Notes: generated from the letters alone by a model not told the origin. Shown: positions 4,076-61,695, counted from the stretch's first letter. The stretch is 64,000 nt of DNA from an uncultured Heliobacteriaceae bacterium (GCA_964468345.1 CAYXVZ010000023.1:4147-68146), one strand, 5' to 3'. Translations and numbers: made by a program.

Positions 4076-4906
4076 TTAGTTAATCCCCAACAATTCCACT
4101 TCGAACACCAGCGTCGCATTCGGGGGAATGACGCCGCCCGCGCCGCGCGCGCCGTAGCCGAGTTGCGGCGGGATGACGAGTTTGCGTTTGCCGCCGACCT
4201 TCATGGACATGACGCCTTCGTCCCAGCCCTTGATGACCTGGCCGACGCCGATCTGAAAGGTGAAGGGTTGATTGCGATCGAGCGAGCTGTCGAATTTGCG
4301 GCCGTCATCGAGCGTGCCGGTGTAATGCACCGTCACGTTCTGTCCCGGCTTCGGGCTTTCGCCCGTGCCGACGACGAGGTCTTCATATTTCAATCCGGAT
4401 TCCGTAGTCATCGCTTTGGCTCCCAGCACAGAGGCTTTTAAAGGAACGGAAACCCACGAGACCGCCTGCCAACCGGTGGGACGACGCGCCCAGACTTCGG
4501 TGTGACTGGCGGCGCCGAGCGGTTTGCCGTTCCGAACATAGGTTGCGCGGCCGGTCACGACAGCGGTCGTGCCATACACGCGTAGCTTGAACTCATCGGT
4601 TCGTATTTCATCCAGTTGGACGGTGGTGGATTTGAGCATCTCGATCATCGCCGCCTTGTCGACGAAGCTGCCATCCGTATTGATTGCCGTAAAATCCGCC
4701 GCAAAAATGCGATTGAGCGTGGTTTCGTCTTTCTTGACCACTGCGTCGAACCATTCGCGCTCCAGCTTCCTGAGCTGCGCTTCGGTTGCCGTCGCCGCGG
4801 CGCCTCCTGTTTTCGCGGGCAGCGGCCGTTTTGCTTTGGTCTGGGCGAGAGCGAGCGAGGCTGTGACAAGAACCAACAAAAGGGTAAGAAAAAATCTCTT
4901 CTGCAA
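4076..4906 (-). CDS. Secreted DUF4440/SnoaL-like + FKBP-type peptidyl-prolyl isomerase fusion
   Basis: Signal peptide; NTF2-like middle domain; FKBP motifs VHYTGTL, FDSS, GQVIKGWDEG, YGARG, IPPNATLVFEVELL; TTG start with AAAGGAG SD. Confidence 0.85.
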   Translation of the reverse strand: MQKRFFLTLLLVLVTASLALAQTKAKRPLPAKTGGAAATATEAQLRKLEREWFDAVVKKDETTLNRIFAADFTAINTDGSFVDKAAMIEMLKSTTVQLDEIRTDEFKLRVYGTTAVVTGRATYVRNGKPLGAASHTEVWARRPTGWQAVSWVSVPLKASVLGAKAMTTESGLKYEDLVVGTGESPKPGQNVTVHYTGTLDDGRKFDSSLDRNQPFTFQIGVGQVIKGWDEGVMSMKVGGKRKLVIPPQLGYGARGAGGVIPPNATLVFEVELLGIN

Positions 4907-5016
4907 ACCTGACTCCTTTGCTCGCGATCTGGCGCGAGTCTTTCAGATGTGATAAGCCATCCCAGACAATACTCAATTTTCCCACGCGTTGTACAGCGGA
5001 CCTATCCCGGAGGCAT

Positions 5017-6776
<1,760 letters not shown>

Positions 6777-6929: not shown

Positions 6930-8000
6930 CTATTTGTTTTCAGCAATATGACCGATCATCGCCAACGGTTCTCCCTTGTTGACGGGCGGCGTGGCGACGA
7001 CGTAGAGGACGGTGCCGGCAAAGGGCGCGCGCGATTCATAGATTCGCTTGCCGAAAAAGTCCGTGACATAGCCGATCAGCGTTCCCTTGGCGACGGATTG
7101 ATGCCGATCGACCAGGGAATAAAAAATGCCGGTGGCTTCGGTGGTCAGGACGACGCTGCGATCGATGAATTGCGGAGATTCGACAACGGCCGCGGTCCCG
7201 GGCAGGATTTTCAGATGCCGCATAATGTTGAGCAGGCCGTCTTCGATTTTTGCAATGGAGTCGTGATCGGTGCGGCCGAGGCCGCCGGATTCGATCGTGA
7301 TGGCGGGCTTGCCGCGCGTTGTCGCGGTCGTCGAGCAATATTTCGAATTGGCCGGATCGGTGGGCCGTTCGCTGTCCATCACGATGTGATCGAAGCCGAA
7401 GGCCAGCGCCATCTGCCTGGATTTTTCCACCACCTCGGGACCGCCCGCCTTTGTGTCCCAATAGGTGTAATAGCCGAGATTTTCATTCCCGTCGCCGCAG
7501 TGCAGATCCATCACATAATCGGCGCGCTCGATGACTTCTTTTGTGATCTGATAGGCGATCCGCTCTGAAATCGTCCCATCCGTCTTGCCCGGATAAACGC
7601 GATTGAGATTCTTGCCGTCGACGGGCGAATAATAAATGGTTCGTTTCAAAAACGAAGGCATATTCGCGACATGCACCAGAATCACCGTGCCCGCCATCTG
7701 CGCGGGATCGAGCCGGGGCAACAGCCGCTGCAACGCGAGAATCGGCGTGTATTCATAGCCATGATTTCCCGCAACCAGCGCGAGCACCGGCCCCGGCTTC
7801 GCCCCGTGAATCACGGAGACGGGAAGCGTCGTGGCCTCGTCTTTTCCGGCGGGAATTTCAATCGAACCCGACGCCTTCTCGCCGGGCTGTGCCGTGATCG
7901 GTCCCACGACAAAGCCGCGGCGGGGCTGCTGTGCGTTACTGCTGATACTGAAGAAAAGAAAAAATACTGCCAGAATCGTGGGGAGGTTCCGCCTGGTCAT
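6930..8000 (-). CDS. Succinylglutamate desuccinylase/aspartoacylase (M14-like) family protein
   Basis: AGNHGYE, NLNRVYPG, MDLHCG motifs; signal peptide; C-terminal biotinyl-like domain. Confidence 0.85.
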   Translation of the reverse strand: MTRRNLPTILAVFFLFFSISSNAQQPRRGFVVGPITAQPGEKASGSIEIPAGKDEATTLPVSVIHGAKPGPVLALVAGNHGYEYTPILALQRLLPRLDPAQMAGTVILVHVANMPSFLKRTIYYSPVDGKNLNRVYPGKTDGTISERIAYQITKEVIERADYVMDLHCGDGNENLGYYTYWDTKAGGPEVVEKSRQMALAFGFDHIVMDSERPTDPANSKYCSTTATTRGKPAITIESGGLGRTDHDSIAKIEDGLLNIMRHLKILPGTAAVVESPQFIDRSVVLTTEATGIFYSLVDRHQSVAKGTLIGYVTDFFGKRIYESRAPFAGTVLYVVATPPVNKGEPLAMIGHIAENK

Positions 8001-8018: not shown

Positions 8019-9314
8019 TCACTGTTCCGCCAGTTGCTTTTTCTTCAATTGAGGTCGTTCGTTCTCTTCAGTCGTGGCGGCGGCGGGACCTTCGGTCCGG
8101 GCCTTATAGCCGCTACGGGTGCGAACGACCATGCCTTCGTCCTTCACGCGGACTTTGACTTCGCGGAAGGTGCCGTCTTTTTTCGAATTCTTGGGGTAAT
8201 AGCTGATGCGATATTGATACCGAAGCTCTTCCGCAATCCGCGTGAATGCGGACGCGACATTCGAGAGCGTGTCGGCTTTATACAGGCGCCCGCCGCTGTG
8301 ATCGGCAAGTTGCTGCAGATAGCGCGCGCCGCGCTCGTATTCTTCCGGCGATCCCATGCCGCCGCCCTGCCCGCCGCGGCCCCCCGGCCATTGACCGCCG
8401 CCCGGCCATTGCGGCGTCCACTGAAAGACGAACGGCGCGAAAGGCCAGCGCCGGCCGCCGCGCGGCGACGGAATCGGAAACGGGCTGTAAACCGGCGGCT
8501 GCCGTTGTCCCGGGCCGTAAATGCCACCGCGCGTATCGTCCATCGTGTCGTACGCGATCGGAAAGATCAGCGTATCCATTTCATCGACCAGTTCGATCGT
8601 GTTGCGCGCATTGGCCCGGCGGCTGGACGTGTCCACGCCGTCCGTGAATACAACGATCGCCTTGCGGCCCTCGATCGGGCGCATTTTTTCATCCAGCGTC
8701 CGATACATCGCTTCGTATAACTTCGTGCTGCCGCCCGTTCGCGTGCGATAGATCGCGTCCCGCGCAATGCCGCGATCGGTTGAGAACTCCGACAGAAAAC
8801 GAACCTTGTCGTCGAACGCCGCGACCATGATCTGGTCGTCTTCGCGCAACTGATTGACGAACTTGTTGGCCGCGTCCTGAATGTCTTCGAGTTTGAATTT
8901 GGTGCTGTTCGAGGTGTCGAGCACCAGCGCGACGTGGAAGGGCGTGGAGACGGACTCCACGCTTTCGATGTCCTGTTCGATGCCGTTTTCGAACACGCGA
9001 AAATCGCTCTTTTTCAGGAAAGGAGCGTAGCGGCCATCGCGCCCGATGACCGAGACCGGAACGGTCACGAGAAAGGTATCCAGTTTGATGACGCCGTTAT
9101 CGTCGATCTCAACCGGCGTTGTCACGGACAATGGTTTGCTCGGTGCGTCCCGCTCTTTGGTCTTTTCGTCTTCCTCACTGACCACCCGGCCGCGCGATTC
9201 GGACTTCACCGGTTTGCGCCCCGACTGCGCGAAAGAAGCATGAATTGAAAACGCCAACATCCCCGCGAAGAGCGTGAACACGACGATTGCGCGAGCGTAT
9301 CTGAACTGCAGCAT
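8019..9314 (-). CDS. VWA domain protein (acidobacterial type)
   Basis: LVLDTSNS MIDAS, TKLYEA, IVVFTDGVD, ELRYQY.ISYYP. Confidence 0.85.
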   Translation of the reverse strand: MLQFRYARAIVVFTLFAGMLAFSIHASFAQSGRKPVKSESRGRVVSEEDEKTKERDAPSKPLSVTTPVEIDDNGVIKLDTFLVTVPVSVIGRDGRYAPFLKKSDFRVFENGIEQDIESVESVSTPFHVALVLDTSNSTKFKLEDIQDAANKFVNQLREDDQIMVAAFDDKVRFLSEFSTDRGIARDAIYRTRTGGSTKLYEAMYRTLDEKMRPIEGRKAIVVFTDGVDTSSRRANARNTIELVDEMDTLIFPIAYDTMDDTRGGIYGPGQRQPPVYSPFPIPSPRGGRRWPFAPFVFQWTPQWPGGGQWPGGRGGQGGGMGSPEEYERGARYLQQLADHSGGRLYKADTLSNVASAFTRIAEELRYQYRISYYPKNSKKDGTFREVKVRVKDEGMVVRTRSGYKARTEGPAAATTEENERPQLKKKQLAEQ

Positions 9315-9384: not shown

Positions 9385-9519
9385 CAGGAAGCAGGAGGCA
9401 GCGGCAGGAGGCAGGGTCTTTCGCCACTGCATAATCCATTTTTATTGTGCCTCCGGCAGAGTTCCTGCCTACTGCTGCTGCCGACTGCCTCCTGCTTCTT
9501 CTGCCACTGCCTCCTGCCT
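9385..9519. repeat. Palindromic element (gcaggaggcag family); right arm overlaps YihY 3' end
   Basis: Arms 9385-9415/9464-9498, with an extra unit to 9519. Confidence 0.75.
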
Positions 9520-10464
9520 TCGAAAAGGCAGATATCCCGTCATCGACTCAGGCAAGACCTTATGCGCGGAAAGATTGGCGCCCAGAATCAGGATAAACGA
9601 TGAAATGAAGATCCATGTAATGAGCGCCATCAGGGAAGAAAGTTTTTGATAGCTTTCCTTGAAATCGAACAGCGGCAGCGCAATGCGAAAGCCGATCGTC
9701 GCGATCAGCCATAACAGGGAGGTCGCCACCGCCGTGAAAAAGACCTGTCCCGCATTCACCTTTCCATTCGGCACGATGAAATAAATCAGGAAGAGAAGCA
9801 GGATGACAAAGGGAAATGCCACGCCATGCCCGATCAGGCCGAACAGGATTTTGCCGCCCAGGGAATTTCCATCAACCAGGAAATCGAGAAAGAAGGCATA
9901 AAAGCTGGCGATCGCGACGGGCATCAGCAGGACGACGGCGCAAAGAACGACCAGCGCCAGATACGTCAGATACTGCTTGATGAAGCTGCGCTCTTTGAAT
10001 CCCCATGCGCGATTGAGCGCCGCTTCCAGCGGTTGAAACACGCCGGAGGCCGAAAAAATCAGCAGGCCGAACGACATCAGCGTCGCCTTGCCGCCCGGGC
10101 CGCGCGTGACCGAATCCAGGCTTTCAAACAGCATCTTGGATTGGTCCGGGACCAGCGACATCATCAGGCGGAAACTGGTCTCATACCCGCGCCGCCAATT
10201 GAGCACGTTCACCAGAAAACTTCCGATCAGGACTACAAAGGAGAAAAAGGAAAGGAGGACATTGAATGCAATGGCTGAGGCATTCACATACGTTTCCGTG
10301 GTCGTCAGATCATAGATCGCCGGCCACATCTTTTTGAAGAAGACAAAGCCGCCGCGCAGATAAAAGCCCACACCCCGCCCAACCGGGCGCGTGGTGGCGG
10401 GCGTGGTCGCAACCACCGGGTCTATTTTGCGCGTCGCCGCGTCGATTCTGGAGGTTTCGGACAT
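9469..10464 (-). CDS. YihY/virulence factor BrkB family membrane protein
   Basis: ASAIAFNVLLSFF, SASGVF..LEAALNRAW, LITWIFISSFILILGA. Confidence 0.85.
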   Translation of the reverse strand: MSETSRIDAATRKIDPVVATTPATTRPVGRGVGFYLRGGFVFFKKMWPAIYDLTTTETYVNASAIAFNVLLSFFSFVVLIGSFLVNVLNWRRGYETSFRLMMSLVPDQSKMLFESLDSVTRGPGGKATLMSFGLLIFSASGVFQPLEAALNRAWGFKERSFIKQYLTYLALVVLCAVVLLMPVAIASFYAFFLDFLVDGNSLGGKILFGLIGHGVAFPFVILLLFLIYFIVPNGKVNAGQVFFTAVATSLLWLIATIGFRIALPLFDFKESYQKLSSLMALITWIFISSFILILGANLSAHKVLPESMTGYLPFRRQEAVAEEAGGSRQQQ

Positions 10465-10640
10465 GATCGCTCTCGCAAAGGCCGCCTTTTCAGGCCACAA
10501 AAGTGCTATGCCAGCAAAAAACAGGCGTTCCTGACGCAGGAAATCACTGACTCGCCCGGAAGCGGATGCTCTTCGTGGCTATAAACCAACGGTTCTGATT
10601 GGCGACTGCGGGAGCGACGAATCGTCGACGCGAACAGCGA

Positions 10641-10910
10641 TTAGTGCAACTGTTGTTCGAGCGTGCCGATTTCCGCTTCGATCGCCTGCAGTTGGTGATG
10701 CAGCATTTGCCGTTGCGTGACGGTGCGAGCCCGTTGCAACTGCTCATTGATCTGACTGCGCATCAACCGCAGGGAATCAACTTTTTGGCGTTGTTCGAAG
10801 CTCGGTGCAGACGCCTCTGGCTCAGCCTGTTTGTTGGTGGTGGATTGTTGCGCAACCGGTTGTTCCACTTGCGCCTCTGCTGCTGCTGTACTTTGCCAAC
10901 CTCTTGCCAT
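10641..10910 (-). CDS. Small helical/coiled-coil hypothetical protein
   Basis: 89 aa, MARGWQS start, Gln/Leu heptads; ATG lies 3 nt after the stop of the upstream read-through ORF. Confidence 0.7.
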   Translation of the reverse strand: MARGWQSTAAAEAQVEQPVAQQSTTNKQAEPEASAPSFEQRQKVDSLRLMRSQINEQLQRARTVTQRQMLHHQLQAIEAEIGTLEQQLH

Positions 10911-10913
10911 AAC

Positions 10914-11282
10914 TCAGTGTAGTAAGCATGCCGCGTGTCCAACGACCTTGTCCCCGGTGTTCAATCGACTCGGCGTCGGATGCCAACCTTCGGCAATCCG
11001 AACCTTCAGCAATTCGTCCGGACCTGGTCGGTGATCCCATACGGCGACCGCCGTAACTCCGCCAAGTCAGGTCGAGCCGAAGACCAGAACGAACTGGTCC
11101 CGAAAAGTTGCAATGACATCGTGCGTATATTCGTCGTGCGCGATAGTATCAACCAATAGAACGGGCGGCGTTTGAAAACGTCCCCATTCGATGACTTGTT
11201 GTAGAGTGTTGAAACCGGGTAGTTCGCGTTCCAGCGCGGCGTGGTTTTCGGGTGATAAGTTTGCACGATTAGCCAATTGCAC
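10914..11282 (-). CDS. Candidate selenoprotein (122 aa, in-frame TGA at codon 72)
   Basis: GTG 11282, ...VLVFGST-TGA(11069-11067)-LGGVTAVAVWDHRP...HAACLLH, TGA 10914; SECIS-like hairpin directly after the internal TGA. Confidence 0.7.
11021..11069 (-). promoter_or_regulatory. Bacterial SECIS-like stem-loop
   Basis: UACGGC-GGUC-GCCGUA (11055-11040), loop at +18..+21 after UGA; lower stem GACUUGG/CCAGGUC. Confidence 0.65.
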
Positions 11283-11346
11283 GATACTTAGTGTACCAAA
11301 CACTTTGCCCCGCGGAAATAGTTTGCTTGACCTGGAAGGATGAAAA

Positions 11347-13443
11347 TTGAGGAATTTTCTTCGTACGAAAATCTGGATTTTTCTAATCGCGGGGATGATC
11401 GGAGTGCTGATTGTCGTCGGATTGCTGTTCTGGTGGCGCGGCCGGCCTCCCAGGCCGTACGTTTCGGTCGTCACGGTGGCCGGCACGGGACTGCGGATTG
11501 AAAAAGGGGGGATTCCCGATTATTTCGGCGTGGCGGTCGATGCCGACCATCAAATTTATTATAGCGATGGATCGCGCGGAGCCCTGTGGAATCGGGACGA
11601 AAAGGGCAATCAGCGAATCGTGACGGACGGGCTGGACATGCCGTCGGGCATTGCGATGGCGCCGGACGGGTCGCTGGTGGTGGCCAACACGGGCGACCAT
11701 CGGATCGTGCGGGTGAATCCCGCCACGGGGCAGATTTCACCGGTCGCAGGCGTTGCGGGCAGCAGCGGCGAGGCGGATGGGCCCGCGGGACAGGCCACGT
11801 TCAACGGGCCGATCGGCGTCGCGGTCGGAAAGGACGGCGCGATTTATGTGGCGGACACCTATAACGACCGGATTCGCGAAATCAGCCCGAGCGGGAAGGT
11901 GCGCACGATTGCCGGGGGCCTGCAGGGCTTTCAGGACGGCGCCGGCGCTTCGGCCCGCTTTGACACGCCCTGCGGAATCACGGTCGATATAGATGGTTCC
12001 CTGCTGGTTGCGGACACGGCCAATCATCGGATTCGCCGCGTCACCACGGACGGGCAGGTCAGCACGCTGGCAGGCACGGGCGAACGCGGCCGGCGGGACG
12101 GATCGCTTCCGGATGTGGGGTTTGACGAGCCCATCGCGATCGCGGTCCGGCGCGACGGGCAGGTATTCATCGCGGATGCGGGCAGTTCGGCCTTTCGGAT
12201 GATCAATCGCGATCCGAAATCGACGCCGCAGCCGGTTCTGACGACGCTGGCGGGCGATTACGGATTCGGCCTGGAAGACGCCGAGCTGGCCAAAGCCCGA
12301 TTTCACCGTCCGTCGGGAATCGCCTTTGGCGCGGACGACGCCCTGATTTTCGCGGACAACGGCAATGGCCTCATTCGCGCCCTGCGCTCGCAGGATTTGG
12401 ACATCGGACGCATTGCGGGCCCCGGCGAAGCCATTGTCGCGGCGCAGGAGGTGCGGCAGGCCATCCCGCCTCGATGGCCGTTCGATCCACCAGAGGCCAA
12501 ACGCGATGTCGCGGGAACCTTCGGAGAAATCCGCGGTGAAATGCTGCCCGAGCATGATTCGTGGTTTCACAATGGACTGGATATTGCGGGCGCGTATGGC
12601 GAGGTGGCGCGGGCGATTTATGGCGAGCGGGTCACGCGTCCGCTGGCAGTCGAGGGCGCGGGAACGGGCCGGGAGAGATTGCGGCTGCCGCTGGTGGGGT
12701 ACATACACGTCTCGATCGGGCGCGACCGGAACGATCAACCGATCGGCAATCTCCCCGCGGGAGCGATCACGTTTCGGCGCGATGAAACCGGCGCCATCAT
12801 TGGCGTCCGCGTGCGGCGGGGCACGCGCTTCAATCCCGGCGATCCGATCGGGACATTAAATCGGTTGAACCACGTGCATCTCATCGCGGGTCCGGCCGGC
12901 AGCGAAATCAATGCCCTGGCGGCGCTCGGCTTTCCGGGCCTGATCGACACCATCGCGCCGGTGATTGAGGGTGTTCTGCTCACAAAGGAGCAAAACGAAA
13001 TTCTTTTTGACTCCGCCGCGAAAAAAGCGCCTGTCCCCGCAATCACGGGAAAGATCCGCATCTTCGTCCGCGCCTTCGATCAGGCGGACGGCAATCCGAA
13101 ATACCGCCGACTTGGGGCCTACAAACTAGGCTATGAAGTGCTGGCGCAAAACGGCTCGCCCGTCGTGCCGGTGCGCGAAACGCTGTCCTTCGATCGCCTT
13201 CCTTCTGATCCGGGCGCAGTCGCAATGATCTATGCCGGCGGCAGCCAATCCGGCTATGAAGGCGTGACGGTATTTAATTACGTGGTCACGAATACGCTGC
13301 GGGATGGCAAGGCAAGCGAGGGGTTCCTGGATTTCTCGAGCCTGCCGCCGGGAAACTATATTGTGCGCGTGTTTGCGGATGATTATTTCGGCAATCGAAC
13401 CTGGCGGGAAATCCCGGTACGTGTGCCGCCTGTGAATGGATAA
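11347..13443 (+). CDS. Membrane-anchored NHL-repeat protein with M23-like peptidase region
   Basis: N-terminal TM; about 6 NHL repeats (P.GIAV..DG.IYVADT.N.RIR); HNGLD and HVH motifs; TTG start after GGAAGGA. Confidence 0.75.
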   Translation: MRNFLRTKIWIFLIAGMIGVLIVVGLLFWWRGRPPRPYVSVVTVAGTGLRIEKGGIPDYFGVAVDADHQIYYSDGSRGALWNRDEKGNQRIVTDGLDMPSGIAMAPDGSLVVANTGDHRIVRVNPATGQISPVAGVAGSSGEADGPAGQATFNGPIGVAVGKDGAIYVADTYNDRIREISPSGKVRTIAGGLQGFQDGAGASARFDTPCGITVDIDGSLLVADTANHRIRRVTTDGQVSTLAGTGERGRRDGSLPDVGFDEPIAIAVRRDGQVFIADAGSSAFRMINRDPKSTPQPVLTTLAGDYGFGLEDAELAKARFHRPSGIAFGADDALIFADNGNGLIRALRSQDLDIGRIAGPGEAIVAAQEVRQAIPPRWPFDPPEAKRDVAGTFGEIRGEMLPEHDSWFHNGLDIAGAYGEVARAIYGERVTRPLAVEGAGTGRERLRLPLVGYIHVSIGRDRNDQPIGNLPAGAITFRRDETGAIIGVRVRRGTRFNPGDPIGTLNRLNHVHLIAGPAGSEINALAALGFPGLIDTIAPVIEGVLLTKEQNEILFDSAAKKAPVPAITGKIRIFVRAFDQADGNPKYRRLGAYKLGYEVLAQNGSPVVPVRETLSFDRLPSDPGAVAMIYAGGSQSGYEGVTVFNYVVTNTLRDGKASEGFLDFSSLPPGNYIVRVFADDYFGNRTWREIPVRVPPVNG

Positions 13444-22059: not shown

Positions 22060-22108
22060 GTCATACGTTTTATTTGTACTAACATCCCTCTTCTGGAGAC
22101 GACTTCTT

Positions 22109-23146
22109 ATGAGTGACATCAATATTGGCATCGTGGGCCTTGGCTGGGTGGCGGGCGCGCACATTTCGGCGTTCAATAAAATTCCAGGGGCCAAAGTGAC
22201 GGCTGTCTGTTCGCGCCGCGAACTGGATGAAAAGGCGCTGGAACAACAGTACGGCACGCCGCTCAAGGCCTATCGCGATTTCGATGCGATGCTGAAAGAC
22301 CCGTCGATTCACGTGATCGACGTCTGCACGCCGCATCCGCTGCATGCCGAACAGACCATCGCCGCCGCGAAGGCCGGCAAACACCTGATCATCGAAAAGC
22401 CCCTGGCGCTGAAATACGAAGACACGGTTGCCATGAAAAATGCGATCGACGCGGCTGGCGTCAAAACCTGCGTCTGTTTCGAAGTCCGTTTCAGCCAGCA
22501 GGCCAGCGTCATTCGCGCGACAATCGACGAAGGCCTCGTCGGCGCGCTGCATTATGCCGAAGTCGATTATTATCACGGCATCGGCCCGTGGTACGGGCAG
22601 TTCGGCTGGAACATCAAAAAAGACATGGGCGGCAGCAGTCTGCTCACCGCCGGCTGTCACGCGCTCGATTTGCTGTTGATGTTTATGGGCGGCGAAGTCG
22701 AGGAAGTCACAAGTTATAGCAACCGCACGAAAAGCCCGATTTTCGCGCCGTATGAATACGACACGACCTCGGTCACGCTGCTCAAATTCAAGGACGGCCG
22801 CATCGGCAAGGTCGCTTCGGTGACGGATTGCCTGCAGCCGTATTATTTCCACATTCATCTCTGCGGCAGCGAAGGCAGCATCCTCGACAATCGGCTGTAT
22901 TCGGCCAAGCTCAAAGTCACCAAGGACCGCTGGAGCACGCTGGAAACCAACCTGATCGACTCCGGCGACGTCGCGCACCATCCCTACCTGCCGCAATTCC
23001 AGGCCTTCATCGACAGCCTGCAAAAGAACGAAACGATGCCCCTGACGGATTTCAACACCGCCTTCGAATCCCACCGCGTCGTCTTCGCCGCCGATCAGTC
23101 GGCCGCGGAAAAGCGGACGGTGAAGATGTCGGAATTGAAAGTGTAG
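22109..23146 (+). CDS. Gfo/Idh/MocA family oxidoreductase
   Basis: [37 protein letters not shown]. Confidence 0.92.
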
Positions 23147-23148
23147 GG

Positions 23149-23264
23149 AAGGCAGGGGCGAGAGATTAGGGGCGAGGGGCGAGAAGAAGGAGGCAGCGGC
23201 AGTCGGCAGGAAGCAGGTTCTTTGCCAGCAGGTCTTTTGCTCTTTACACTCGCCACTCGCCACT
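23149..23264. repeat. Left arm of ~116-bp inverted repeat (mosaic of ggggcga and gcaggaggcag families)
   Basis: About 89% identical by manual alignment to the reverse complement of 23644-23760. Confidence 0.85.
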
Positions 23265-33133: not shown

Positions 33134-34090
33134 TCACCCCTGCCCGCCGCCACCGATCAGATAATGATAGACGGCGTTCAGATCATCATCGACGGGCGAG
33201 ACCGATTCGATCGTGAAATCGGGATCGCTCGCGAGGTGATTCAGCAGGCGATAAAAGGAATCGGCATTGCGCGTCTTAATGAACAATCCGCCGTGATCCG
33301 GATGCAGCGTCGCTTCAACGACCGAGTCGCTGTTGAAGACGCGGCTGGCGAACAGGGCCGGCTTGTCGCAACGAATCATGATCTGCATCGGATGCTCTTC
33401 CATCTTTTCTTCGCGCACGACGCCGACGCCGCCTTCCGCCAGGATATAGCCGTTATTGATCAGCACGACCGTGTCGGACATCTCATCGAGCTCATGCAGG
33501 ATGTGACTCGAGACGATCAAATGCAGCCCGTCTTCGGCCAATTGGCGAAACAGGCGAATGGTTTCGGCGCGGGCCATCGGATCGAGACCGTTCAAGGGTT
33601 CGTCCAGAATCATCACGACCGGGTCATGCGCAATCGACTGGGCGAGGCGAATGCGCTGGCGCATGCCCTTGCTATAGCCCGCGACCTTTTGATGCGCGGC
33701 CCCGACCAGATCGACCCGTTCGATGGCCCGCCAGGTGCGTCGCTCCGCTTCTTTATTGTCATAGCCGTGCACCTGCAAAAACGATTTCACGAATTCATAG
33801 CCGGTCATGCCGCGCGGGAACGAATCGAACTGGCTGCAATAGCCCATCTTGCGAAAGAGTTCCTCGGGATTGGACGGCGAAAGGCCGAGAATGCTGATGC
33901 GTCCCCGCGTGGGCTGGATCAGGCCGGTCATCAGATTCATCAGCGTCGTCTTGCCCGATCCGTTCGGCCCGACCAGGCTCGTGATGCCGGGAGCGATCGT
34001 CAGATTGACGCGATTTACGCCGAGAATCTCGCCGTAAAATTTCGAGACGTCCTCGAATATGATCAATTGTTCATTGGTCGCCATCGTCAT
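33134..34090 (-). CDS. ABC transporter ATP-binding protein
   Basis: [29 protein letters not shown]. Confidence 0.93.
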
Positions 34091-34130
34091 TTGTCATCCT
34101 TCTCTCAAATTTCCAATCTCAAATTCGAGA

Positions 34131-34994
34131 TTATGAAATGACTTCATAGGCGCGCACCTTGCGCCAGAGCATGTAAAAACAGATCAGCCCGAAGACCGCG
34201 AACATCGCCCAGGCCTCGCCGACCGAGAACGGCATGGTGTCTTCATTCACGCCGAACAGGTCCCAGGCAATCGTGCTCCAGGCCGCGCCGGGATTGAGCA
34301 GATGCCCTTTGGTGGTATTGAAAAGCCCCTGAATGATGAATCCGATCGGCGTCGGAATGATGAAGACGGCAAAGAGCGCGGCGCTCGCGGCCGTGCGCCA
34401 TTTGATCCAGGCTGACAATGCCATCGAGAGCAGCGACAGGCCGAAGATCGCGGTCAGGCTCGAGATCATGATCGCCGTCCCGATCCAGATATTGTCCCGA
34501 AACCATCCGCCGCCTTCCAGAAAAGCCTGAAAGACGAACAGGAACATGCCCGGCACCCAGGTGATCAGCGAAAGCAGAATCACCAGCACCAGCATCTTTC
34601 CGAAAATATAATCGAAGCGCGAAAGCGGCCGGCTCAGGTACAGCGGCAACGCATTGTTCGAAAGATCCCGCGAAATCAGCACCGGCCCGATGATCACGGT
34701 GAACAGAAAGGCGAGCTGCACCTGTATGCCGAGAAAGATCGAGAAGAAGGTATTGTTGATCGAGAGCAACTCCGCGGCCGAAAGCTGCATGACCTGCAAA
34801 GCGCCCGTATTGTGGTGCAGATAGATGAGGCTCATGAAAATCAGCGGAGCGACATAGCACACCACGAAAAGCGCCGTGAAGGCCTTGTACTTGAACAGAT
34901 CCTGATAGGCATAGCGGGGCATCACCAGCAGCCGCGACCAGCCCGGCGTCAACGCGCCTTCATAGGGTTTGTAACTGTGTTCGTAAACTGCCAT
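34131..34994 (-). CDS. ABC transporter permease
   Basis: [27 protein letters not shown]; six TM helices. Confidence 0.87.
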
Positions 34995-34997
34995 AGG

Positions 34998-35924
34998 TTA
35001 TTCCATTGCCTTGAGGAAAATGTCTTCCAGGGAATCCCGCTTGTAATTCAACCGGCGGATCTGCACATCGTTGGCCGCGGCCAGCTTGTACAGATCGCGA
35101 ACTTCGAGACCGTCCTGCATCACCAGCTTGATGCGGCCGCCCGCGCCGAGCGCATATTCGCAGCCCAGCGCGCCGATCGCTTCGACAAAGGCCGGTTTCG
35201 AATCGCGCGTTTCCATTTCGATGAACTTGCGATTGGCGCGGCGCTCCTCTTCGAGATTGCAGTTCGCGGCGATATTGCCGTTCTTGAGAATCAGAATTTC
35301 ATCGCAGCATTCTTCGACATCGCGCAGCAGATGCGAGGAAAGAACGATCTGCGACTGGCCCGAATCGCGAATTTCGCGGATGAGTTCGATCATGCGCTTG
35401 CGCGCCGGGGGATCGAGACCATTGGTCGGTTCATCGAGAAAGATCAACCGCGGCCCGTGAACGATCGCCTGCGCGAGTTTGGCGAGCTGTTTCATGCCCA
35501 GCGAATAGGTGCCGAGCTTGCGATAACGCGCTTCGCCGAGGCCCACATAAAACAGGGCTTCATGCGCGCGTTCGAGCGCGGCCTCCGACGGCAGGCCGGA
35601 AAGCTCCGCCATCAGCCGCACAAAATGCACGCAGGTCTGATTGGAAATGAAGGAATCGCGCTCGGGCATATAGCCGAGCTTTTCGCGAATGCGTTTGATC
35701 TCGGTGCGGACATCGAGGCCGAAAATTCGCGCCGTCCCCGCCGTCGGCGGATGAAAGCCGAGCAGCGTATGAATCAGCGTCGTCTTGCCCGCGCCGTTCG
35801 GCCCGAGCAGGCCGATGCAGCGGCCGCTGACCGCGCCGTTCAGATCGTTCAGAATTCGGCGCTTGCCGAATTCGATGCGCAGATTGTCGAGTTGAATGAC
35901 CGGAACATTGCCGTTGTTTTCCAT
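34998..35924 (-). CDS. ABC transporter ATP-binding protein
   Basis: [28 protein letters not shown]. Confidence 0.93.
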
Positions 35925-35928
35925 AAAA

Positions 35929-36168
35929 TCACTTCGCCGTTTCTTTCCTGATCGCGGCCCGCGCTTCCCGGATCGCCGCGCGAACGATGCTGTCGTACTG
36001 CCGTGTGATGGAGCCGCCGACAATCAAGCCGATGCCGACCCCATACAGCCAGTATCCGGCGGGCAGGCGGCTCTCGATCGCAACGGGCAGCCATCCCGGA
36101 ATCGAGAGCGCAAGCAAGACGAGACAGACGATTCCAATCAGCATTAACAGACGGCCGAAAAACTTCAT
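35929..36168 (-). CDS. Small two-TM hypothetical protein
   Basis: 79 aa, tightly packed in the operon (4-10 nt gaps). Confidence 0.65.
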
Positions 36169-36178
36169 GAGACCTCGT

Positions 36179-37123
36179 TTATTTCATGCCGACCGCAACG
36201 GGCGTGGGCGCGGCCTTGTCCGCTTTTGCCATGCGAATGTTGCCGTTGATGCCGTGAAGTTCGATTTTGGTGCCGCCCGTGCCGATGCGCGCATTGATCC
36301 GCCCGCGCCGCGGTTCTTTTTCATCGTGCGTGACATTGGGCAGATCGGCATCGACATTGCCGTTCACGCCCCAGGAGTTCACATCGGCGTTGACCTCGCC
36401 TTCAAATTGAAGATCGATGTTTCCATTCACGCCATTGATTTCGATCTTCTTCCCGACCAGCGGCGCATAGGTGACATAGACATTTCCGTTCACGCCGTTG
36501 ATATCGGTGCTGGCGCCCGCGCGCGCGATTTTGACCTCGCCGCTGACCCCGTTCAGATCGATGCTCCCGAGAATTTCGCCCGAGGTGAAGTTGCCGTTCA
36601 AACCGTTGACGTCAAGCTCGATTTTTTTCGGCAATCGCAGCAAAACGCGCTGGCGGCCTTCGGGAATCGTGCCGAGCGAGGAGAAGATGCTCTTGCGATC
36701 GTTCTCGACGCGAATCGTCAATTCCTTGGGACTGCGCTCGATCATAACTTTTCGAAACTGAAGGTCCTCGCGTTTATTGGCCGACCGGATAATCAGGACT
36801 TCCGCGGTTGCGACGTCCGCGGTTTCGATTTTTATGCCGCCGTTGATGCCGCGCAGGTTGATTTCCGTTTCCGGCGTCACCGCATAACTGCGCCGGATTT
36901 CTTCTTTCTCCGCATAATCGATCTTCTCCGGGTCCGAGGTATCGAATTTGACTTCGTTCTTCGGATCGGGCGTCGCGTCGCTCGGCGCAACGTTATCGCT
37001 GGTCAGCGAAGCGGTCGTGCCGGATGCTTCTGTTCCGCTGTTGCTCTGCGATACACGGGGCCGGCAGCCCGCGATCAATATCAATGCGCTGATTGCCATC
37101 ACGAGTGGGATTGTGCGTTTCAT
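36179..37123 (-). CDS. DUF4097 beta-strand-repeat lipoprotein
   Basis: Lipobox LIAGC; repeated INGVNGNI/V units; GGAGAG SD. Confidence 0.85.
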   Translation of the reverse strand: MKRTIPLVMAISALILIAGCRPRVSQSNSGTEASGTTASLTSDNVAPSDATPDPKNEVKFDTSDPEKIDYAEKEEIRRSYAVTPETEINLRGINGGIKIETADVATAEVLIIRSANKREDLQFRKVMIERSPKELTIRVENDRKSIFSSLGTIPEGRQRVLLRLPKKIELDVNGLNGNFTSGEILGSIDLNGVSGEVKIARAGASTDINGVNGNVYVTYAPLVGKKIEINGVNGNIDLQFEGEVNADVNSWGVNGNVDADLPNVTHDEKEPRRGRINARIGTGGTKIELHGINGNIRMAKADKAAPTPVAVGMK

Positions 37124-37160
37124 CCTGCTTCTCTCCTTGGCTAGTGTTCCTGCGTTGTCG

Positions 37161-43421: not shown

Positions 43422-44204
43422 CTATTTAATTGCAATCATAGGATGCCCGTTTACGGCTTGAATGAAAAGGCCGGTCATCACCGCGAAATATAGTGCGGCG
43501 AAGCTGATCGTCAGCAACACCGGCTGCTTTCCGATCCAATCGAAAAATGCGCCGGCGATCGGGAGCGCCTGCAGGGCGTGCAGGCCGATCGCGTGCGCGA
43601 TGCGCAGGTCGCCGCCCTGCGTGCTCCAGTTGGTCAGCGGCAAGCCGGGACCGCCATCCGGCACGCCGACGCTGTGCCTGAAAGAGGACGCCATATAACC
43701 GCCCTCGATGCTGCCGAACAGAAAAATCAGAAATCCCAGTCGAATGCCCCACAGCAATGCAGGCGAGGCATCGACCGGCGCGGAGAAAAAGAGATAGCCC
43801 ACATAGGCTGTCATGAGCGTGCTGAGGCCGATCAGCATTCCCATCAACGCAAAGATCATCCCATTCAAGGGCGTCGAGATGTTGAAATGCGAAGTCGTCC
43901 CGCGCGCTGACTGCACGAGGATCAAAACGATTTCGAGAAGCATGACCGCGACGCTTCCCCAGGCAATCCATGGAAGCTTTCCATGCTGTCCCTTGAGATA
44001 ACCGAACAGCCAGGCCAGCGTCCAGTGATAGATGGCGATCGAAACCGCGAATTTCATCGGCTTGATCCACCGGTTGATGCCGAGAACCTGCGTCGAATCC
44101 ACCATGGCCAAACCGCCAAGAATCGCGACCAGGATCAGATTCGCCAGGCCCGCCCAGGCCAGCAATGAATTTCTGCGCACCAGCTCGTGGCACAACTCGG
44201 TCAT
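43422..44204 (-). CDS. Uncharacterised membrane protein (ABA4/DUF4281-associated type)
   Basis: WIKPMKFA.S, SARGTTSHFN, GDLRIAH.IGLHALQ; ATG overlaps the ABA4 stop. Confidence 0.8.
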   Translation of the reverse strand: MTELCHELVRRNSLLAWAGLANLILVAILGGLAMVDSTQVLGINRWIKPMKFAVSIAIYHWTLAWLFGYLKGQHGKLPWIAWGSVAVMLLEIVLILVQSARGTTSHFNISTPLNGMIFALMGMLIGLSTLMTAYVGYLFFSAPVDASPALLWGIRLGFLIFLFGSIEGGYMASSFRHSVGVPDGGPGLPLTNWSTQGGDLRIAHAIGLHALQALPIAGAFFDWIGKQPVLLTISFAALYFAVMTGLFIQAVNGHPMIAIK

Positions 44205-44632
44205 GATTCCCTCGCCTCCGTTATTCGATGTTTCAGGCTTACAAGGTTGTATAGAAGAAAACCGATCGGCCCGAATAGAAAGGTCAGCAGCAGACACGGA
44301 ATCACCAGCCAATGCGAAAGCCCGTTCCGTTGCGCATCGCGCAGTTCCCAACTGCCCACGAAAAGATCGAACACCAGGTAATGCACCCAGCCCGCCAGCA
44401 GCACCCAGTCGTTGCGAAAGAGCTTCGCCACCTCGGCCAGCGAGCCGAATCCTCCTTCGGTCCGCCCGAAGGTCGTCACAATCAGGACGAGATAGACAAG
44501 GGACAGGAGCAGCGGAATCAATCCCGACAGCACGATGCGCGCCGTCCATCGCCACCGCGGAAGCACGATCATCAAAATCCAGCCGAGCATCGCCGTGAGA
44601 TTCGCAATCGAAAACAGTTGTTCAGGGGTCAT
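44201..44632 (-). CDS. ABA4-like (DUF4281) membrane protein
   Basis: GW.LMI.LPRW, LAGWVHYLVFDLFVG, CL.LTFLFGP.G.LLY. Confidence 0.9.
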   Translation of the reverse strand: MTPEQLFSIANLTAMLGWILMIVLPRWRWTARIVLSGLIPLLLSLVYLVLIVTTFGRTEGGFGSLAEVAKLFRNDWVLLAGWVHYLVFDLFVGSWELRDAQRNGLSHWLVIPCLLLTFLFGPIGFLLYNLVSLKHRITEARES

Positions 44633-44650
44633 TGGGTTTCCTTTCGTTTT

Positions 44651-44725
44651 GCCACTGAGGCACAGAGGCACAGAGATAAAGACAAGTTCTGCCAGCCTTT
44701 CTCCGTGTCTCTGTGCCTCTGTGGC
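44651..44725. repeat. Palindromic element (ccacagag family) inside an operon
   Basis: Arms 44651-44675/44701-44725. Confidence 0.8.
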
Positions 44726-44728
44726 CTA

Positions 44729-45799
44729 TCATCTGTTTCTCGCCTCATCAAGCGCGATATACGCATTGACGCGCAGGCCGAGCGGCAGCAAATTGCCCGC
44801 GTCGAGTTCGATCAATGTTTCGAGAATTTTGGTATCGACCTTTTCCGCCGGATCGTCCGTGCGGACATTTTTCTTGCCGAGCACCTGTCCGATGCGAACG
44901 ACCTTGCCCGCAAAGCGCCGGTCGCCGAAAGCGTCGGCCGTGACATAGGCCGCCTGGCCGACCTGCAGCCGGGCGACATCGACTTCATCGACATCGACGC
45001 GCACGCGCAGCACGGAGCTATCCGCCAGGGTAACGATCGGCTGGCTGGCCCCGACCTGCGAACTCATCGCGCTCTCGCCCGTTTTCAAATGCTTGCGCAG
45101 AATCACGCCATCCAGGGGCGAGCGCACGACGGTTTTGTCGAGCATCGCGCGCGCCTCGGCAATCTGGGCGCGGGCGAGTTCGATTTCGGCCTGGGCGCGG
45201 GCGACGTCCTCTTCGCGCGCGGCGGCATCGACAAAGGAATGCCGCTGGCGGGCGGCTTCATAACGCGCCGTTGCAACCTCGAATTGCCTTTCGGCGCGCT
45301 CGACTTCTTCGCGGGCGATGTCGCCCGTTCGGTGCAGCGAGCGGCGGCGCTCCATTTCGTTTTTCGCATTGAGCATCGTCGCTTCCGATTCGCGAATCGC
45401 GGCGAAGGCTTCGCGGCGTTCCTGGTCGCGCGCGCCGTTCACCGTGCGGCGGAGTTCGGCTTCTTTCTGCTGCAATCGCGCTTCGGCCGAGGCGAGGCGC
45501 GCGCGAAAATCCGCGTCTTCGAGGACGGCAATGATCTGTCCGCGGCGGATGCGATCGCCTTCTTCGACCGGCACCGATTTCAGTTTTCCCGTGATCTCGG
45601 CATTGATGCGGATCTCTTCGGACACCGGCTCCACCCGGCCGGGCGCGGTGATGACTTTTTTGGCGGTGTCCGCCGGCGCCACGGCCTGTGTTGCACTCGC
45701 CGTTTCCTTCGGCCGCTTTCGTTCGGCGGAGATTCCCCAGAATACGGCGGTCGATAAAAGAACAAGAATCACACCTGCATAAACGATTCTCTTTTTCAT
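44729..45799 (-). CDS. HlyD-family membrane fusion protein (DevB-like)
   Basis: N-terminal TM, APGRVEP, V.EGD.I..GQ, coiled coil, VRSPLDGVI. Confidence 0.88.
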   Translation of the reverse strand: MKKRIVYAGVILVLLSTAVFWGISAERKRPKETASATQAVAPADTAKKVITAPGRVEPVSEEIRINAEITGKLKSVPVEEGDRIRRGQIIAVLEDADFRARLASAEARLQQKEAELRRTVNGARDQERREAFAAIRESEATMLNAKNEMERRRSLHRTGDIAREEVERAERQFEVATARYEAARQRHSFVDAAAREEDVARAQAEIELARAQIAEARAMLDKTVVRSPLDGVILRKHLKTGESAMSSQVGASQPIVTLADSSVLRVRVDVDEVDVARLQVGQAAYVTADAFGDRRFAGKVVRIGQVLGKKNVRTDDPAEKVDTKILETLIELDAGNLLPLGLRVNAYIALDEARNR

Positions 45800-60125: not shown

Positions 60126-60183
60126 GTTATGAGTCTTATAGGACCTATAAGACTTATAGGTCCTATAAGACTTATAAGAACTA
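60126..60183. repeat. 9-bp-period tandem repeat (cttatagg family), about 6 units
   Basis: ttatgagtc ttataggac ctataagac ttataggtc ctataagac ttataagaa, between convergent stops. Confidence 0.85.
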
Positions 60184-61509
60184 TTTCTCAAACGCCTCAG
60201 GATGCAAAAATTTCCCTCGCGCTTCCTGCGGTTTCATTTCCTCGACCTGAATGCGGTATTTCTCGGCATAGGCGTCTTTGCGAACGCCGGTCAACTGCCA
60301 TGAAATTTCCATCCCGGGTTTGCCGCCCGCGATATTGAACCGGTTGCCCTGCACCTTTTTGGCGACGAACACCGGCGCATAATCGCCGATCGGCGTCAGT
60401 TGATAACGGAATTCGCGATTGAGCGCCTCGAACCAGTCCGGCAGCGTGACTTCGGCCGAGCCGTCTTTGCCGAGCGTGACGATGCCGTTATAGATATTCA
60501 TCATATCCGGCGATTCGACGAAGGAATGCGAGAGATATTTGTTTTCCGGATCGAGCGGATGATCGATCTTGAATGCGCCGCCCGCCTTCGACAAAAATCC
60601 CGCCACGTGAACGCGGCCGATGAAATAACCGGCGAAGCCATTCGGACTGTCGGTGCGGCCGACCACGCCGTAATTGACGCCCGTCGTATTCGTCGCATAG
60701 CCGAGGACGCCGCGGCCGTTCAAACCGGCATTGAGGCCTTTGACGCCGAAGGTCAGGCCGGTCTCGGCATTGATTTCGCCGAGCACGCCGACGCCCGTGT
60801 TGCTTTTGCTCTCGCCGCGAACGCCGATGTTATCGCCGGTCGTCGAAACGCCGATGCCCTCGACGCCGATGCCGTTCCTGCTCAGAGACGTGCCTTTCAC
60901 GCCGATGCCCTCGCTCTTTTCATTCGGATCAGTCGATTCATGCAGTCCCTGCCCGAACACGCCGATGCCGATGTTGCTGAACGATCCGGCATGAACGCCG
61001 AAATTCGAACCCTTTTTCCCCTGCGACAAAGCATACACGGCGCTGCCGGTCGTCACCTCGTCCGGATCTTTCGAAGGCTGCAAAACGGCTTGAATCGTAT
61101 TGGCGCTGTTTCTGTCTTCGGGCATGTAATACACGCGGAGCCGGATGTTCGCTCCCGGCGTTGTGCCGATCGCGACGTTGCCGCCGTCCTCCACAATCAC
61201 ATCTTCCAGATCGAGTCTTCCCCGCTTGACGCTGGCCGCGGCCGCGCCCGGCTCCTTGATCGTCAGCGTCCAGTCATATACCCCCTCTTTTTGCGCCGGC
61301 CAGAGAATCTCGTTCTTCGCAACCGTTCCGCTGTCATAAATGGCCGCGCCGGTGTGATCGTGAATCTGCAATCGCAGCGTTTCGACCGGTCGCAGACTAG
61401 AAAAGCGCAGTTGCCGCGCGCCGGCCGCCGGTGCGCTCTGCGCAAGGCTGACGGAAGAAAGCAGCAGCGTCAGCAGCAGGCTGAAAAATATTTTTGAAAT
61501 CGTCGACAT
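60181..61509 (-). CDS. Secreted fibre/adhesin-like protein with Gly-rich beta repeats and an S74-like chaperone-type C-terminus
   Basis: Signal peptide; repeated GVxG units; FKIDHPLDPENKYLSHSFVESP...LPDWFEALN; GGAGGT SD. Confidence 0.7.
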   Translation of the reverse strand: MSTISKIFFSLLLTLLLSSVSLAQSAPAAGARQLRFSSLRPVETLRLQIHDHTGAAIYDSGTVAKNEILWPAQKEGVYDWTLTIKEPGAAAASVKRGRLDLEDVIVEDGGNVAIGTTPGANIRLRVYYMPEDRNSANTIQAVLQPSKDPDEVTTGSAVYALSQGKKGSNFGVHAGSFSNIGIGVFGQGLHESTDPNEKSEGIGVKGTSLSRNGIGVEGIGVSTTGDNIGVRGESKSNTGVGVLGEINAETGLTFGVKGLNAGLNGRGVLGYATNTTGVNYGVVGRTDSPNGFAGYFIGRVHVAGFLSKAGGAFKIDHPLDPENKYLSHSFVESPDMMNIYNGIVTLGKDGSAEVTLPDWFEALNREFRYQLTPIGDYAPVFVAKKVQGNRFNIAGGKPGMEISWQLTGVRKDAYAEKYRIQVEEMKPQEARGKFLHPEAFEK

Positions 61510-61695
61510 GAAATTTACCTCCAAATCAGTATTTAGCGAGATCTCCCGATCTGCGGGCAGACCTTCGTCGTTGCGCATGGACCGTAAGACGGCCCACGCT
61601 ACACGTTCCGATGGACTTCAAACGAGCATCGCCGCGTTTGATTGGCGTTTCGACCTAGAAGACGGAGAGCGAGATTCAGACCGGCCATTGCCGCG

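Follow-up and report, generated by a model that had tools for sequence, protein, structure and literature searches.

The locus and its interrupted reading frame

The stretch of DNA analysed here, 64,000 nucleotides (nt) attributed to an uncultured Heliobacteriaceae bacterium (GCA_964468345.1, CAYXVZ010000023.1:4147-68146) and hereafter called the window, carries on its minus strand a short gene that is interrupted by an in-frame TGA and that, judged by comparison with its relatives, is very probably a genuine selenocysteine (Sec)-encoding gene of an uncatalogued family. From the GTG at 11282 the open reading frame (ORF) listing and the translation give one in-frame TGA at 11069..11067 and then 50 further codons up to the true stop codon, a TGA at 10916..10914, which is followed by GTT and the ATG (10910) of the next ORF. 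The coding sequence of the putative 122-residue selenoprotein spans 11282..10917, with the GTG start at 11282..11280 and the UGA read as Sec at codon 72 (U72), an assignment based on frame, translation and a 79-sequence alignment. A preliminary description of the window had drawn attention to this frame; the peptide that it quoted and the 3 nt that it counted between the extended stop and the ATG of the next gene are exact, and the stop that it placed at 11067 is indeed an in-frame TGA, but 11067 is only the last base of that codon.

Downstream of the UGA the mRNA reads CUUGGCGGAGU-UACGGC-GGUC-GCCGUA. With the U of the UGA numbered as position 1, positions 15-20 pair with 25-30 in a 6-bp stem (11055..11050/11045..11040, minus strand) around the loop G21 G22 U23 C24 (11049..11046), and the whole hairpin, of the selenocysteine insertion sequence (SECIS) type, lies at 11055..11040 inside the codons for V-T-A-V-A-V. 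Both its presence and the position of the GGUC loop at +18..+21 after the UGA are as first described. On the same strand the codons of a D-E-Y-T-H-D motif (residues 50-55) are found at 11118..11135 and the codon of Cys119, in the context G-H/Y-A-A-C, at 10926..10928; both are invariant in 79/79 Sec forms, and Cys119, the C-terminal Cys pointed out previously, is a candidate partner of Sec72. In the reading put forward here, one intact gene would give a 122-residue cytoplasmic selenoprotein, with the UGA at codon 72 recoded as selenocysteine in translation.

Conservation of the UGA codon and forms without selenocysteine

The preliminary description had asked whether homologs keep the TGA aligned, whether others carry Cys in its place and whether the hairpin covaries. 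Scanning 185,579 species, each represented by a single genome, yielded 110 relatives, of which 80 loci were fetched and analysed, and TGA was found at the aligned codon in 80/80 of these, the C-terminal half after the TGA being strongly conserved in the 79-sequence alignment. According to the record titles 49 of the loci belong to Gemmatimonadota, 19 to Acidobacteriota and 11 to Myxococcota, with one unclassified. Blastocatellia, Pyrinomonadaceae and Chloracidobacterium are found among the Acidobacteriota carriers, and the Myxococcota carriers comprise Nannocystis exedens DSM 71 (L062), N. punicea, N. radixulma, N. bainbridge and metagenome-assembled genomes (MAGs) of Polyangia, the four Nannocystis species being cultured. 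The residues L27, D50, E51, Y52, T53, H54, D55, U72, G74, A78, V79, P86, L92, W100, G110, G115, A117 and C119 are invariant in the alignment. The 81 family genes terminate in TGA (43), TAA (21) or TAG (17), whereas at codon 72 only TGA occurs. A reassigned genetic code was considered and is ruled out, since TGA is the ordinary terminal stop in the carrier organisms in 43 of these 81 genes.

In a word-indexed protein search eleven proteins stopped exactly at ...GST (residue 71), one started just past the UGA, and two were of full length with Cys aligned to the UGA (P0003 and P0008). An exhaustive profile search gave 908 clusters at 50% identity, most of which were N-halves ending at profile position 72 or C-halves beginning at 74-82, a pattern that is the signature of genes split by gene callers. 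About 25 of these clusters are full length; at the site they carry Cys (12 or more), Trp (4), Ser (4), Arg (2), Gly or Pro. Cys, present in a minority of the full-length homologs, is encoded by TGC in P0003 and P0008 and by TGT in P0017 and is carried by about 10-12 further representatives, which answers the second question in the affirmative.

As natural controls, DNA was fetched for seven non-Sec homologs. In two TGC forms that branch among Sec forms the hairpin persists, with 6/6 and 5/6 pairs, and one of them, P0003, sits within a well-supported Gemmatimonadaceae Sec clade in the tree; we read these two hairpin-keeping forms as recent Sec-to-Cys replacements with a relic SECIS. The five more diverged forms (TGT, TGC, TGT and two TGG) have only 2-4 of the 6 pairs, and their peptide at the TAVAV site is relaxed to TAIAI, TGVVA, TAVSI, TSVSV and QRVSV. 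Non-Sec forms are scattered among Sec forms in the tree, where the Cys label needs 11 changes and the starred branches force at least two, basal resolution being poor. This distribution suggests that Sec is the prevailing, perhaps ancestral, state; most family members use Sec, and the Cys, Trp, Ser and Arg forms are scattered secondary variants.

Two observations on individual copies may be added. A genuine TGG (Trp) codon stands at the Sec position in the metagenome contigs L083 (185-574) and L086 (143-463) and is not an artefact of table-4 translation; both have lost the hairpin and Cys119 is replaced by Ser in L083, so one-base UGA-to-UGG escapes evidently survive in nature. The Gemmatimonadales chromosome OZ252244.1 (L029) carries a second, partial copy about 930 nt downstream of the first (7113-7340 against 6182-6409), which spans from just before the UGA to the end of the gene and is 83% identical, with UGA and hairpin intact and the frame broken by indels. 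It is probably a decaying tandem duplicate.

The hairpin across the family

Hairpin statistics were taken over 78 distinct sequences and were not corrected for phylogeny. The family consensus is N-ACGGC-GGUC-GCCGU-N', and pairing is present in 98.4% of the cells of the helix. Both members of the outer pair 15-30 are third codon positions; the pair is G-C in 51 sequences, C-G in 17, A-U in 2 and U-A in 1, the latter being the window. C15 was paired with G30 in 17/18 cases (Fisher 6e-16, uncorrected as above), and the C-G variant occurs in all three phyla. Also the loop positions 21 and 24, again third codon positions, vary together, as G...C in 71 sequences and A...U in 7 and never mixed, and one locus (L066) has a double change from C-G to G-C that alters two amino acids (T to R and V to L). 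The hairpin covaries, at 15-30 and 21-24 through third codon positions and in L066 by a double change, which answers the third question. G22 and U23 open a Val codon and are for that reason invariant across the relatives.

Constraint on synonymous positions follows the limits of the hairpin. The third codon positions within it (18, 21, 24 and 27) are almost invariant and those outside (6, 9, 12, 36, 39, 42 and 45) are free, and T-A-V-A is encoded as exactly ACG GCG GTC GCC in 64/69 sequences, against 2.8% expected from the codon usage of long ORFs in the same loci. Compared with the consensus for bacterial SECIS (bSECIS) elements quoted in PMC13188914, the apical loop GGUC has 4 nt (3-9 nt in the consensus), the upper stem 6 bp (4-16 bp), the loop starts with GG (G in the first two loop positions), the distance from UGA to loop is 17 nt (16-37 nt) and the minimum free energy of the hairpin alone is -8.0 to -8.8 kcal/mol (at most -7.5 kcal/mol). 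No Rfam SECIS model matched; nothing in the window reached the gathering threshold, and near the hairpin there was only a chance snoRNA match (E 2.8). The pattern of substitutions marks the hairpin as an RNA element of SECIS type that is under selection.

The element falls within codons 76-81 (window 11040-11057), which encode V-T-A-V-A-V. Since the diverged non-Sec forms have no hairpin and a relaxed peptide, the protein itself requires neither ACG-GCG-GUC-GCC nor strictly TAVAV, and it seems to be the SECIS RNA, not the protein, that maintains the V-T-A-V-A-V peptide. Mechanistically the hairpin, 13 nt 3' of the UGA and with its GGUC tetraloop 17 nt after it, would act as a bacterial SECIS and, like that of E. 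coli fdhF, bring SelB with its Sec-tRNA(Sec) to the ribosome. The Val codon supplies the G-U of the loop, with RNA and protein constraints superimposed. We infer with high confidence that Sec is inserted at codon 72 in a SelB-dependent manner.

The preliminary description had added a lower stem, GACUUGG/CCAGGUC, that includes the UGA. Such a stem enclosing the hairpin is predicted in the window (11021..11068, minus strand; nt 2-11 with nt 39-49 after the U of the UGA), but at least 6 of its 7 pairs form in only 2/78 distinct relatives, so it is specific to the window and not conserved. A second candidate lower helix was rejected, being 50% paired among relatives and likewise not conserved. When the window was scanned for other read-through candidates, a naive TGA scan returned only noise, and a strict scan for UGA followed by a GGUC hairpin returned the selenoprotein gene and no other candidate.

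Selenium genes in carrier genomes

In the Gemmatimonadaceae contig L075 the scan for UGA with a GGUC hairpin picked up a second gene at 11060-11740 (+), with its TGA at 11318 in the context C-L-F-U-I-G-S-H. Its product scores 96.4 bits with TIGR01926 (cut-off 81.8) and belongs to the catalogued AhpD-like CxxU family. The hairpin of this gene, CGCCGC-GGUC-GCGGCG, differs in its stem but not in its geometry, the loop again occupying nt 21-24 when the U of the UGA is counted as 1. In the Gemmatimonadales MAG JBFXBG010000025.1 (L054) a selD gene was found at 4618-5676 (+) (TIGR00476, 377 bits), itself Sec-containing (SHGAG-U-ACK); it lies upstream of the new selenoprotein gene in the same orientation, and its end is 300 nt away. 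No other selD was found in the 80 flanks, and the linkage may be due to chance or may hint at a role in selenium metabolism. Both finds lend partial, indirect support to Sec decoding in the carriers.

Predicted structure and a candidate active site

The read-through product is predicted by AlphaFold2 from the 79-sequence alignment as a single domain (predicted local distance difference test 95.4, predicted template modelling score 0.88). The predicted elements are a strand (3-5), two helices (11-20 and 27-35), a four-strand meander (43-48, 53-60, 64-71 and 75-82), a helix (88-97), a short hairpin (105-112) and a helix (116-120), giving the topology beta-alpha-alpha-beta4-alpha-beta2-alpha. In this model U72 is the first residue of a tight turn, T-U-L-G, between meander strands 3 and 4. 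D50-E51-Y52-T53-H54-D55, invariant in the Sec forms, extends over the turn that links strands 1 and 2 and into the beginning of strand 2, and D50 and D55 are at least 90% conserved even in diverged non-Sec forms. From the meander topology we infer that this turn would lie on the same sheet edge as the Sec turn. Foldseek gave no significant match in the PDB (best E 0.18, template modelling score at most 0.33) and none in BFVD, and a profile search of PDB sequences gave no match. Read directly, the sequence contains no signal peptide or hydrophobic segment, and the protein is therefore probably cytoplasmic.

It is possible, though the balance lies slightly against it, that Sec72 on its beta-hairpin turn forms a redox or a metal- or selenium-binding active site together with the DEYTHD loop and Cys119, possibly via a selenenylsulfide. 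The selenol on the exposed beta-turn would then be the reactive centre and Cys119 a possible resolving partner.

Weighing the evidence

The reading of the gene as that of a 122-residue Sec-containing protein, offered in the preliminary description, is borne out by the aligned TGA, the Cys forms, the conserved downstream half and the covarying hairpin taken together. Several points weigh against it or against parts of it. The pair statistics for covariation carry no correction for phylogeny. The fold energy of the window sequence is unexceptional, -28.1 kcal/mol with z = -0.57 for its composition (RNAfold), and because this single-sequence energy is unremarkable the significance of the hairpin rests on the comparison across relatives. 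The window contains no tRNA-Sec, nor was one found close to the gene in the first 60 loci, and motif scans of the locus flanks and the window gave neither SelA nor SelB; for the window this agrees with the earlier statement that it holds no sel genes, as it contains no tRNA gene and no SelA, SelB or SelD domain in 20 scanned ORFs of suitable size. The gene neighbourhood is not conserved, no neighbour being common to more than 8 of 81 loci, and offers no functional clue. In a few distant homologs site 72 is occupied by Trp, Ser, Arg, Pro or Gly, and the Sec residue is accordingly not indispensable to the fold. Finally, no more than about half of the full-length non-Sec forms still have Cys119, among them forms without Cys or Sec at 72, which weakens the selenenylsulfide idea.

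The alternative that survives best concerns novelty and leaves the biology as proposed: the gene may be a genuine selenoprotein gene of a family already described in a subscription paper, a supplementary table or an InterPro or CDD entry, in which case the reading would be correct and not new. New bacterial selenoprotein families do appear regularly, deep-Sep (2025) alone having contributed nine, and the literature search covered open-access full text. However, of the 119 families in the 2026 inventory of prokaryotic selenoproteins (PMC13188914, Table 1) almost every one is tied to a Pfam, TIGRFAM or NCBIfam model, and neither the window protein nor two Cys homologs match any of these models, the few inventory entries keyed only to CDD or PANTHER lying outside this direct comparison. 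Even at E<=1 no match to the window protein or the Cys homologs was obtained among 24,736 Pfam (Pfam-A 2025) and 18,950 NCBIfam (20.0, June 2026) models, and neither half of the window protein matches Pfam or NCBIfam when taken separately. The preliminary description had held GST-U-LG not to be a classic motif, and (S/T)-T-U-L-G is indeed not among the catalogued selenoprotein motifs. Among open-access full texts no paper with the motif strings was found, and nothing relevant on Nannocystis selenocysteine or on soil selenoproteomes. The Nannocystis copies in RefSeq and UniProt are still listed as 'hypothetical proteins' of 67-68 residues (WP_096326161.1, WP_269039686.1, WP_267680353.1 and A0A1I1WJK2), and non-marine metagenomic selenoproteome surveys were very rare according to a 2022 review. 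A prior description is accordingly considered improbable.

Read-through of the UGA without Sec, by a near-cognate Trp or Cys tRNA helped by the hairpin and by a weak UGA-C context, would leave an ordinary residue in the full-length protein and is quite unlikely. In its favour, the UGA is followed by C in 68/75 distinct sequences, true Trp (TGG) forms exist, and no SelA, SelB or tRNA-Sec gene was found in the window or the scanned flanks. Yet the hairpin has the features of a SelB-type element, namely a GGUC loop at constant distance in which G22 and U23 never vary, and the same features recur in a genuine AhpD-type CxxU gene on one of the carrier contigs; the common replacement at the site is Cys and not Trp, the Trp forms have no hairpin and one of them (P0016) also lacks Cys119, and the Sec-containing selD adjoins the gene in L054.

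Translation might instead stop at the UGA, giving a 71-residue product and a separately initiated C-terminal product, with the hairpin serving transcript stability or translational coupling. The separate annotation of the halves by gene callers and the GTG codons shortly after the UGA would fit two such proteins, but the full-length Cys forms are single polypeptides, the UGA falls within a tight beta-hairpin turn of one confidently predicted domain, and in 80 loci there is never a frame shift or a spacer between the halves. The site has only TGA and never TAA or TAG, whereas the terminal stops use all three, and the two-product explanation is held to be very unlikely indeed. The chance that a recent nonsense mutation or a sequencing error has made a pseudogene in this genome is practically nil, as nothing beyond the stop codon itself speaks for it and it is already refuted by the same TGA in 80/80 loci of three phyla with purifying selection on both halves.

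Upstream sequence and gene neighbourhood

A -10-like box, TACACT, lies at 11295..11290 (minus strand), 7 nt upstream of the GTG start, and had been taken as a hint at a leaderless transcript. The hint is supported in part: the box is there and is kept in the five closest relatives, and TANNNT recurs in 22/79 loci. In the window and L001-L005, CTCTACACT / CTCTAAACT is kept 7-8 nt before the GTG (window 11283-11295), and no Shine-Dalgarno sequence is present. In the 22/79 loci TANNNT ends 4-9 nt before the start, against a background of 2%. A sigma-70 consensus scan upstream of the gene gave no full promoter. The arrangement suggests leaderless transcripts, unusually with a GTG start in the clade of the window.

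Starting 3 nt after the stop of the selenoprotein gene is an ORF of 89 amino acids (10641..10910, minus strand) with a predicted coiled coil, which belongs to no family and has no significant Pfam match. By tblastn it is found directly downstream in L001-L005 and L044 only, and it is probably co-transcribed with the selenoprotein gene in the acidobacterial clade of the window. The next gene downstream encodes a BrkB/YihY-family membrane protein (9469..10500, minus strand; PF03631, 1.2e-34), the same neighbour being found in 6 loci, and the third gene of the downstream set in the window encodes a VWA-domain protein (8019-9314, minus strand). The 89-residue ORF, the BrkB/YihY gene and the VWA gene together look like a clade-specific operon. 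Across the family the recurring neighbours are unrelated in function and include an ADP-forming acyl-CoA synthetase, a HEAT-cyclophilin, an S9 peptidase, VWA and BrkB.

The largest neighbour cluster (43 loci) was rejected as a neighbour, being only an antisense shadow ORF of the selenoprotein gene itself. This ORF of about 220 amino acids, which shadows the conserved GC-rich coding strand, overlaps the gene on its minus strand in 43/81 loci, and gene callers could be misled by it. Elsewhere in the window seven long ORFs (325-481 amino acids) have no Pfam match at E<=1e-5 and some of them overlap neighbours. Listed among the long ORFs are 44312-45757 (+), 60181-61578 (-), 22079-23263 (-), 34812-37144 (+), 43422-44555 (-) and 33164-34141 (+), and some may be shadow frames, the GC content of the window being 58.6%.

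Significance

Hundreds of public genomes and metagenomes, including those of cultured Nannocystis in RefSeq, carry the gene as one or two meaningless fragments, and a profile made from the 79-sequence alignment would repair these annotations. A large, mostly Sec family would be added to the prokaryotic selenoproteome, from aerobic soil phyla that are barely covered by surveys of selenium utilisation. With Sec dominant and probably ancestral in a protein that lacks the CxxU and UxxC motifs as well as the thioredoxin fold, the family is a test case for why selenium is preferred outside the classical redox folds. It also offers an instance in which a short SECIS visibly constrains the overlapping protein sequence, TAVAV being relaxed once the UGA is replaced. 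The prediction of Sec can be tested directly in cultured carriers, for instance N. exedens DSM 71.

A wider proposal, doubtful as a whole, is that of a Sec-ancestral family, with this protein as its founding member, that has an unseen fold and a non-thioredoxin chemistry of a selenol on a beta-hairpin turn, DEYTHD and C-terminal Cys. If this were true, the site could be one for handling selenium or a metal, perhaps tied to selenophosphate synthesis as the adjacency of selD in L054 hints; the family would be one main reason for the persistence of the Sec machinery in the soil Gemmatimonadota, Blastocatellia and Nannocystaceae, which are largely aerobic; and the TAVAV peptide would owe its sequence to the SECIS RNA and not to the protein.

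Comparison with known systems

Among the closest known counterparts is the SECIS of E. coli fdhF, in which the GGUC loop reportedly occupies nt 22-25 and G23 and U24 contact SelB. As in fdhF, the hairpin of the new family lies directly 3' of the UGA within the coding sequence and has a GGUC tetraloop with an invariant G-U, at nt 21-24 against nt 22-25; as a further likeness, the two outermost bases of the loop covary with each other (G-C to A-U). It differs in having a continuous upper stem of 6 bp in which the bulged U of fdhF has no clear counterpart, invariant unpaired U14 and U31 flanking the stem, and in that the conserved element is only 16 nt long and has no conserved lower helix, binding of SelB being predicted only.

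With the AhpD-like CxxU proteins (TIGR01926), which come from the same soil lineages, the family shares a small cytoplasmic product, a 6-bp stem with a GGUC loop at identical distance from the UGA, and genes that are split by gene callers, whereas the fold and family are different: the AhpD-like proteins have the CxxU motif and Pfam and TIGRFAM models, and the new family has (S/T)-T-U-L-G with no nearby Cys and no model. The catalogued hypothetical selenoprotein families (for example hypothetical protein DG, with the motif GUxG and model NF049953; GOS_B and GOS_C; TsoA with LULAxC) are likewise small, computationally defined and characterised by a conserved Sec and Sec/Cys pairs; the new family has another motif and no NCBIfam match at E<=1, and it is mostly Sec and from aerobic soil phyla, the hypothetical families coming instead from anaerobes or marine samples. 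Thioredoxin-fold selenoproteins (SelW-like, peroxiredoxin, glutaredoxin and thioredoxin) resemble it as small soluble single domains with a probably reactive selenol and a possible resolving Cys, but the new family has no CxxU, UxxC or TxxU motif, and among its Foldseek matches, none of them significant, there is no thioredoxin-like structure. What is new is the family, which is large, mostly Sec, from soil phyla and of no recognisable fold, and which is absent from Pfam, NCBIfam and the 2026 inventory; its recoding mechanism is entirely conventional.

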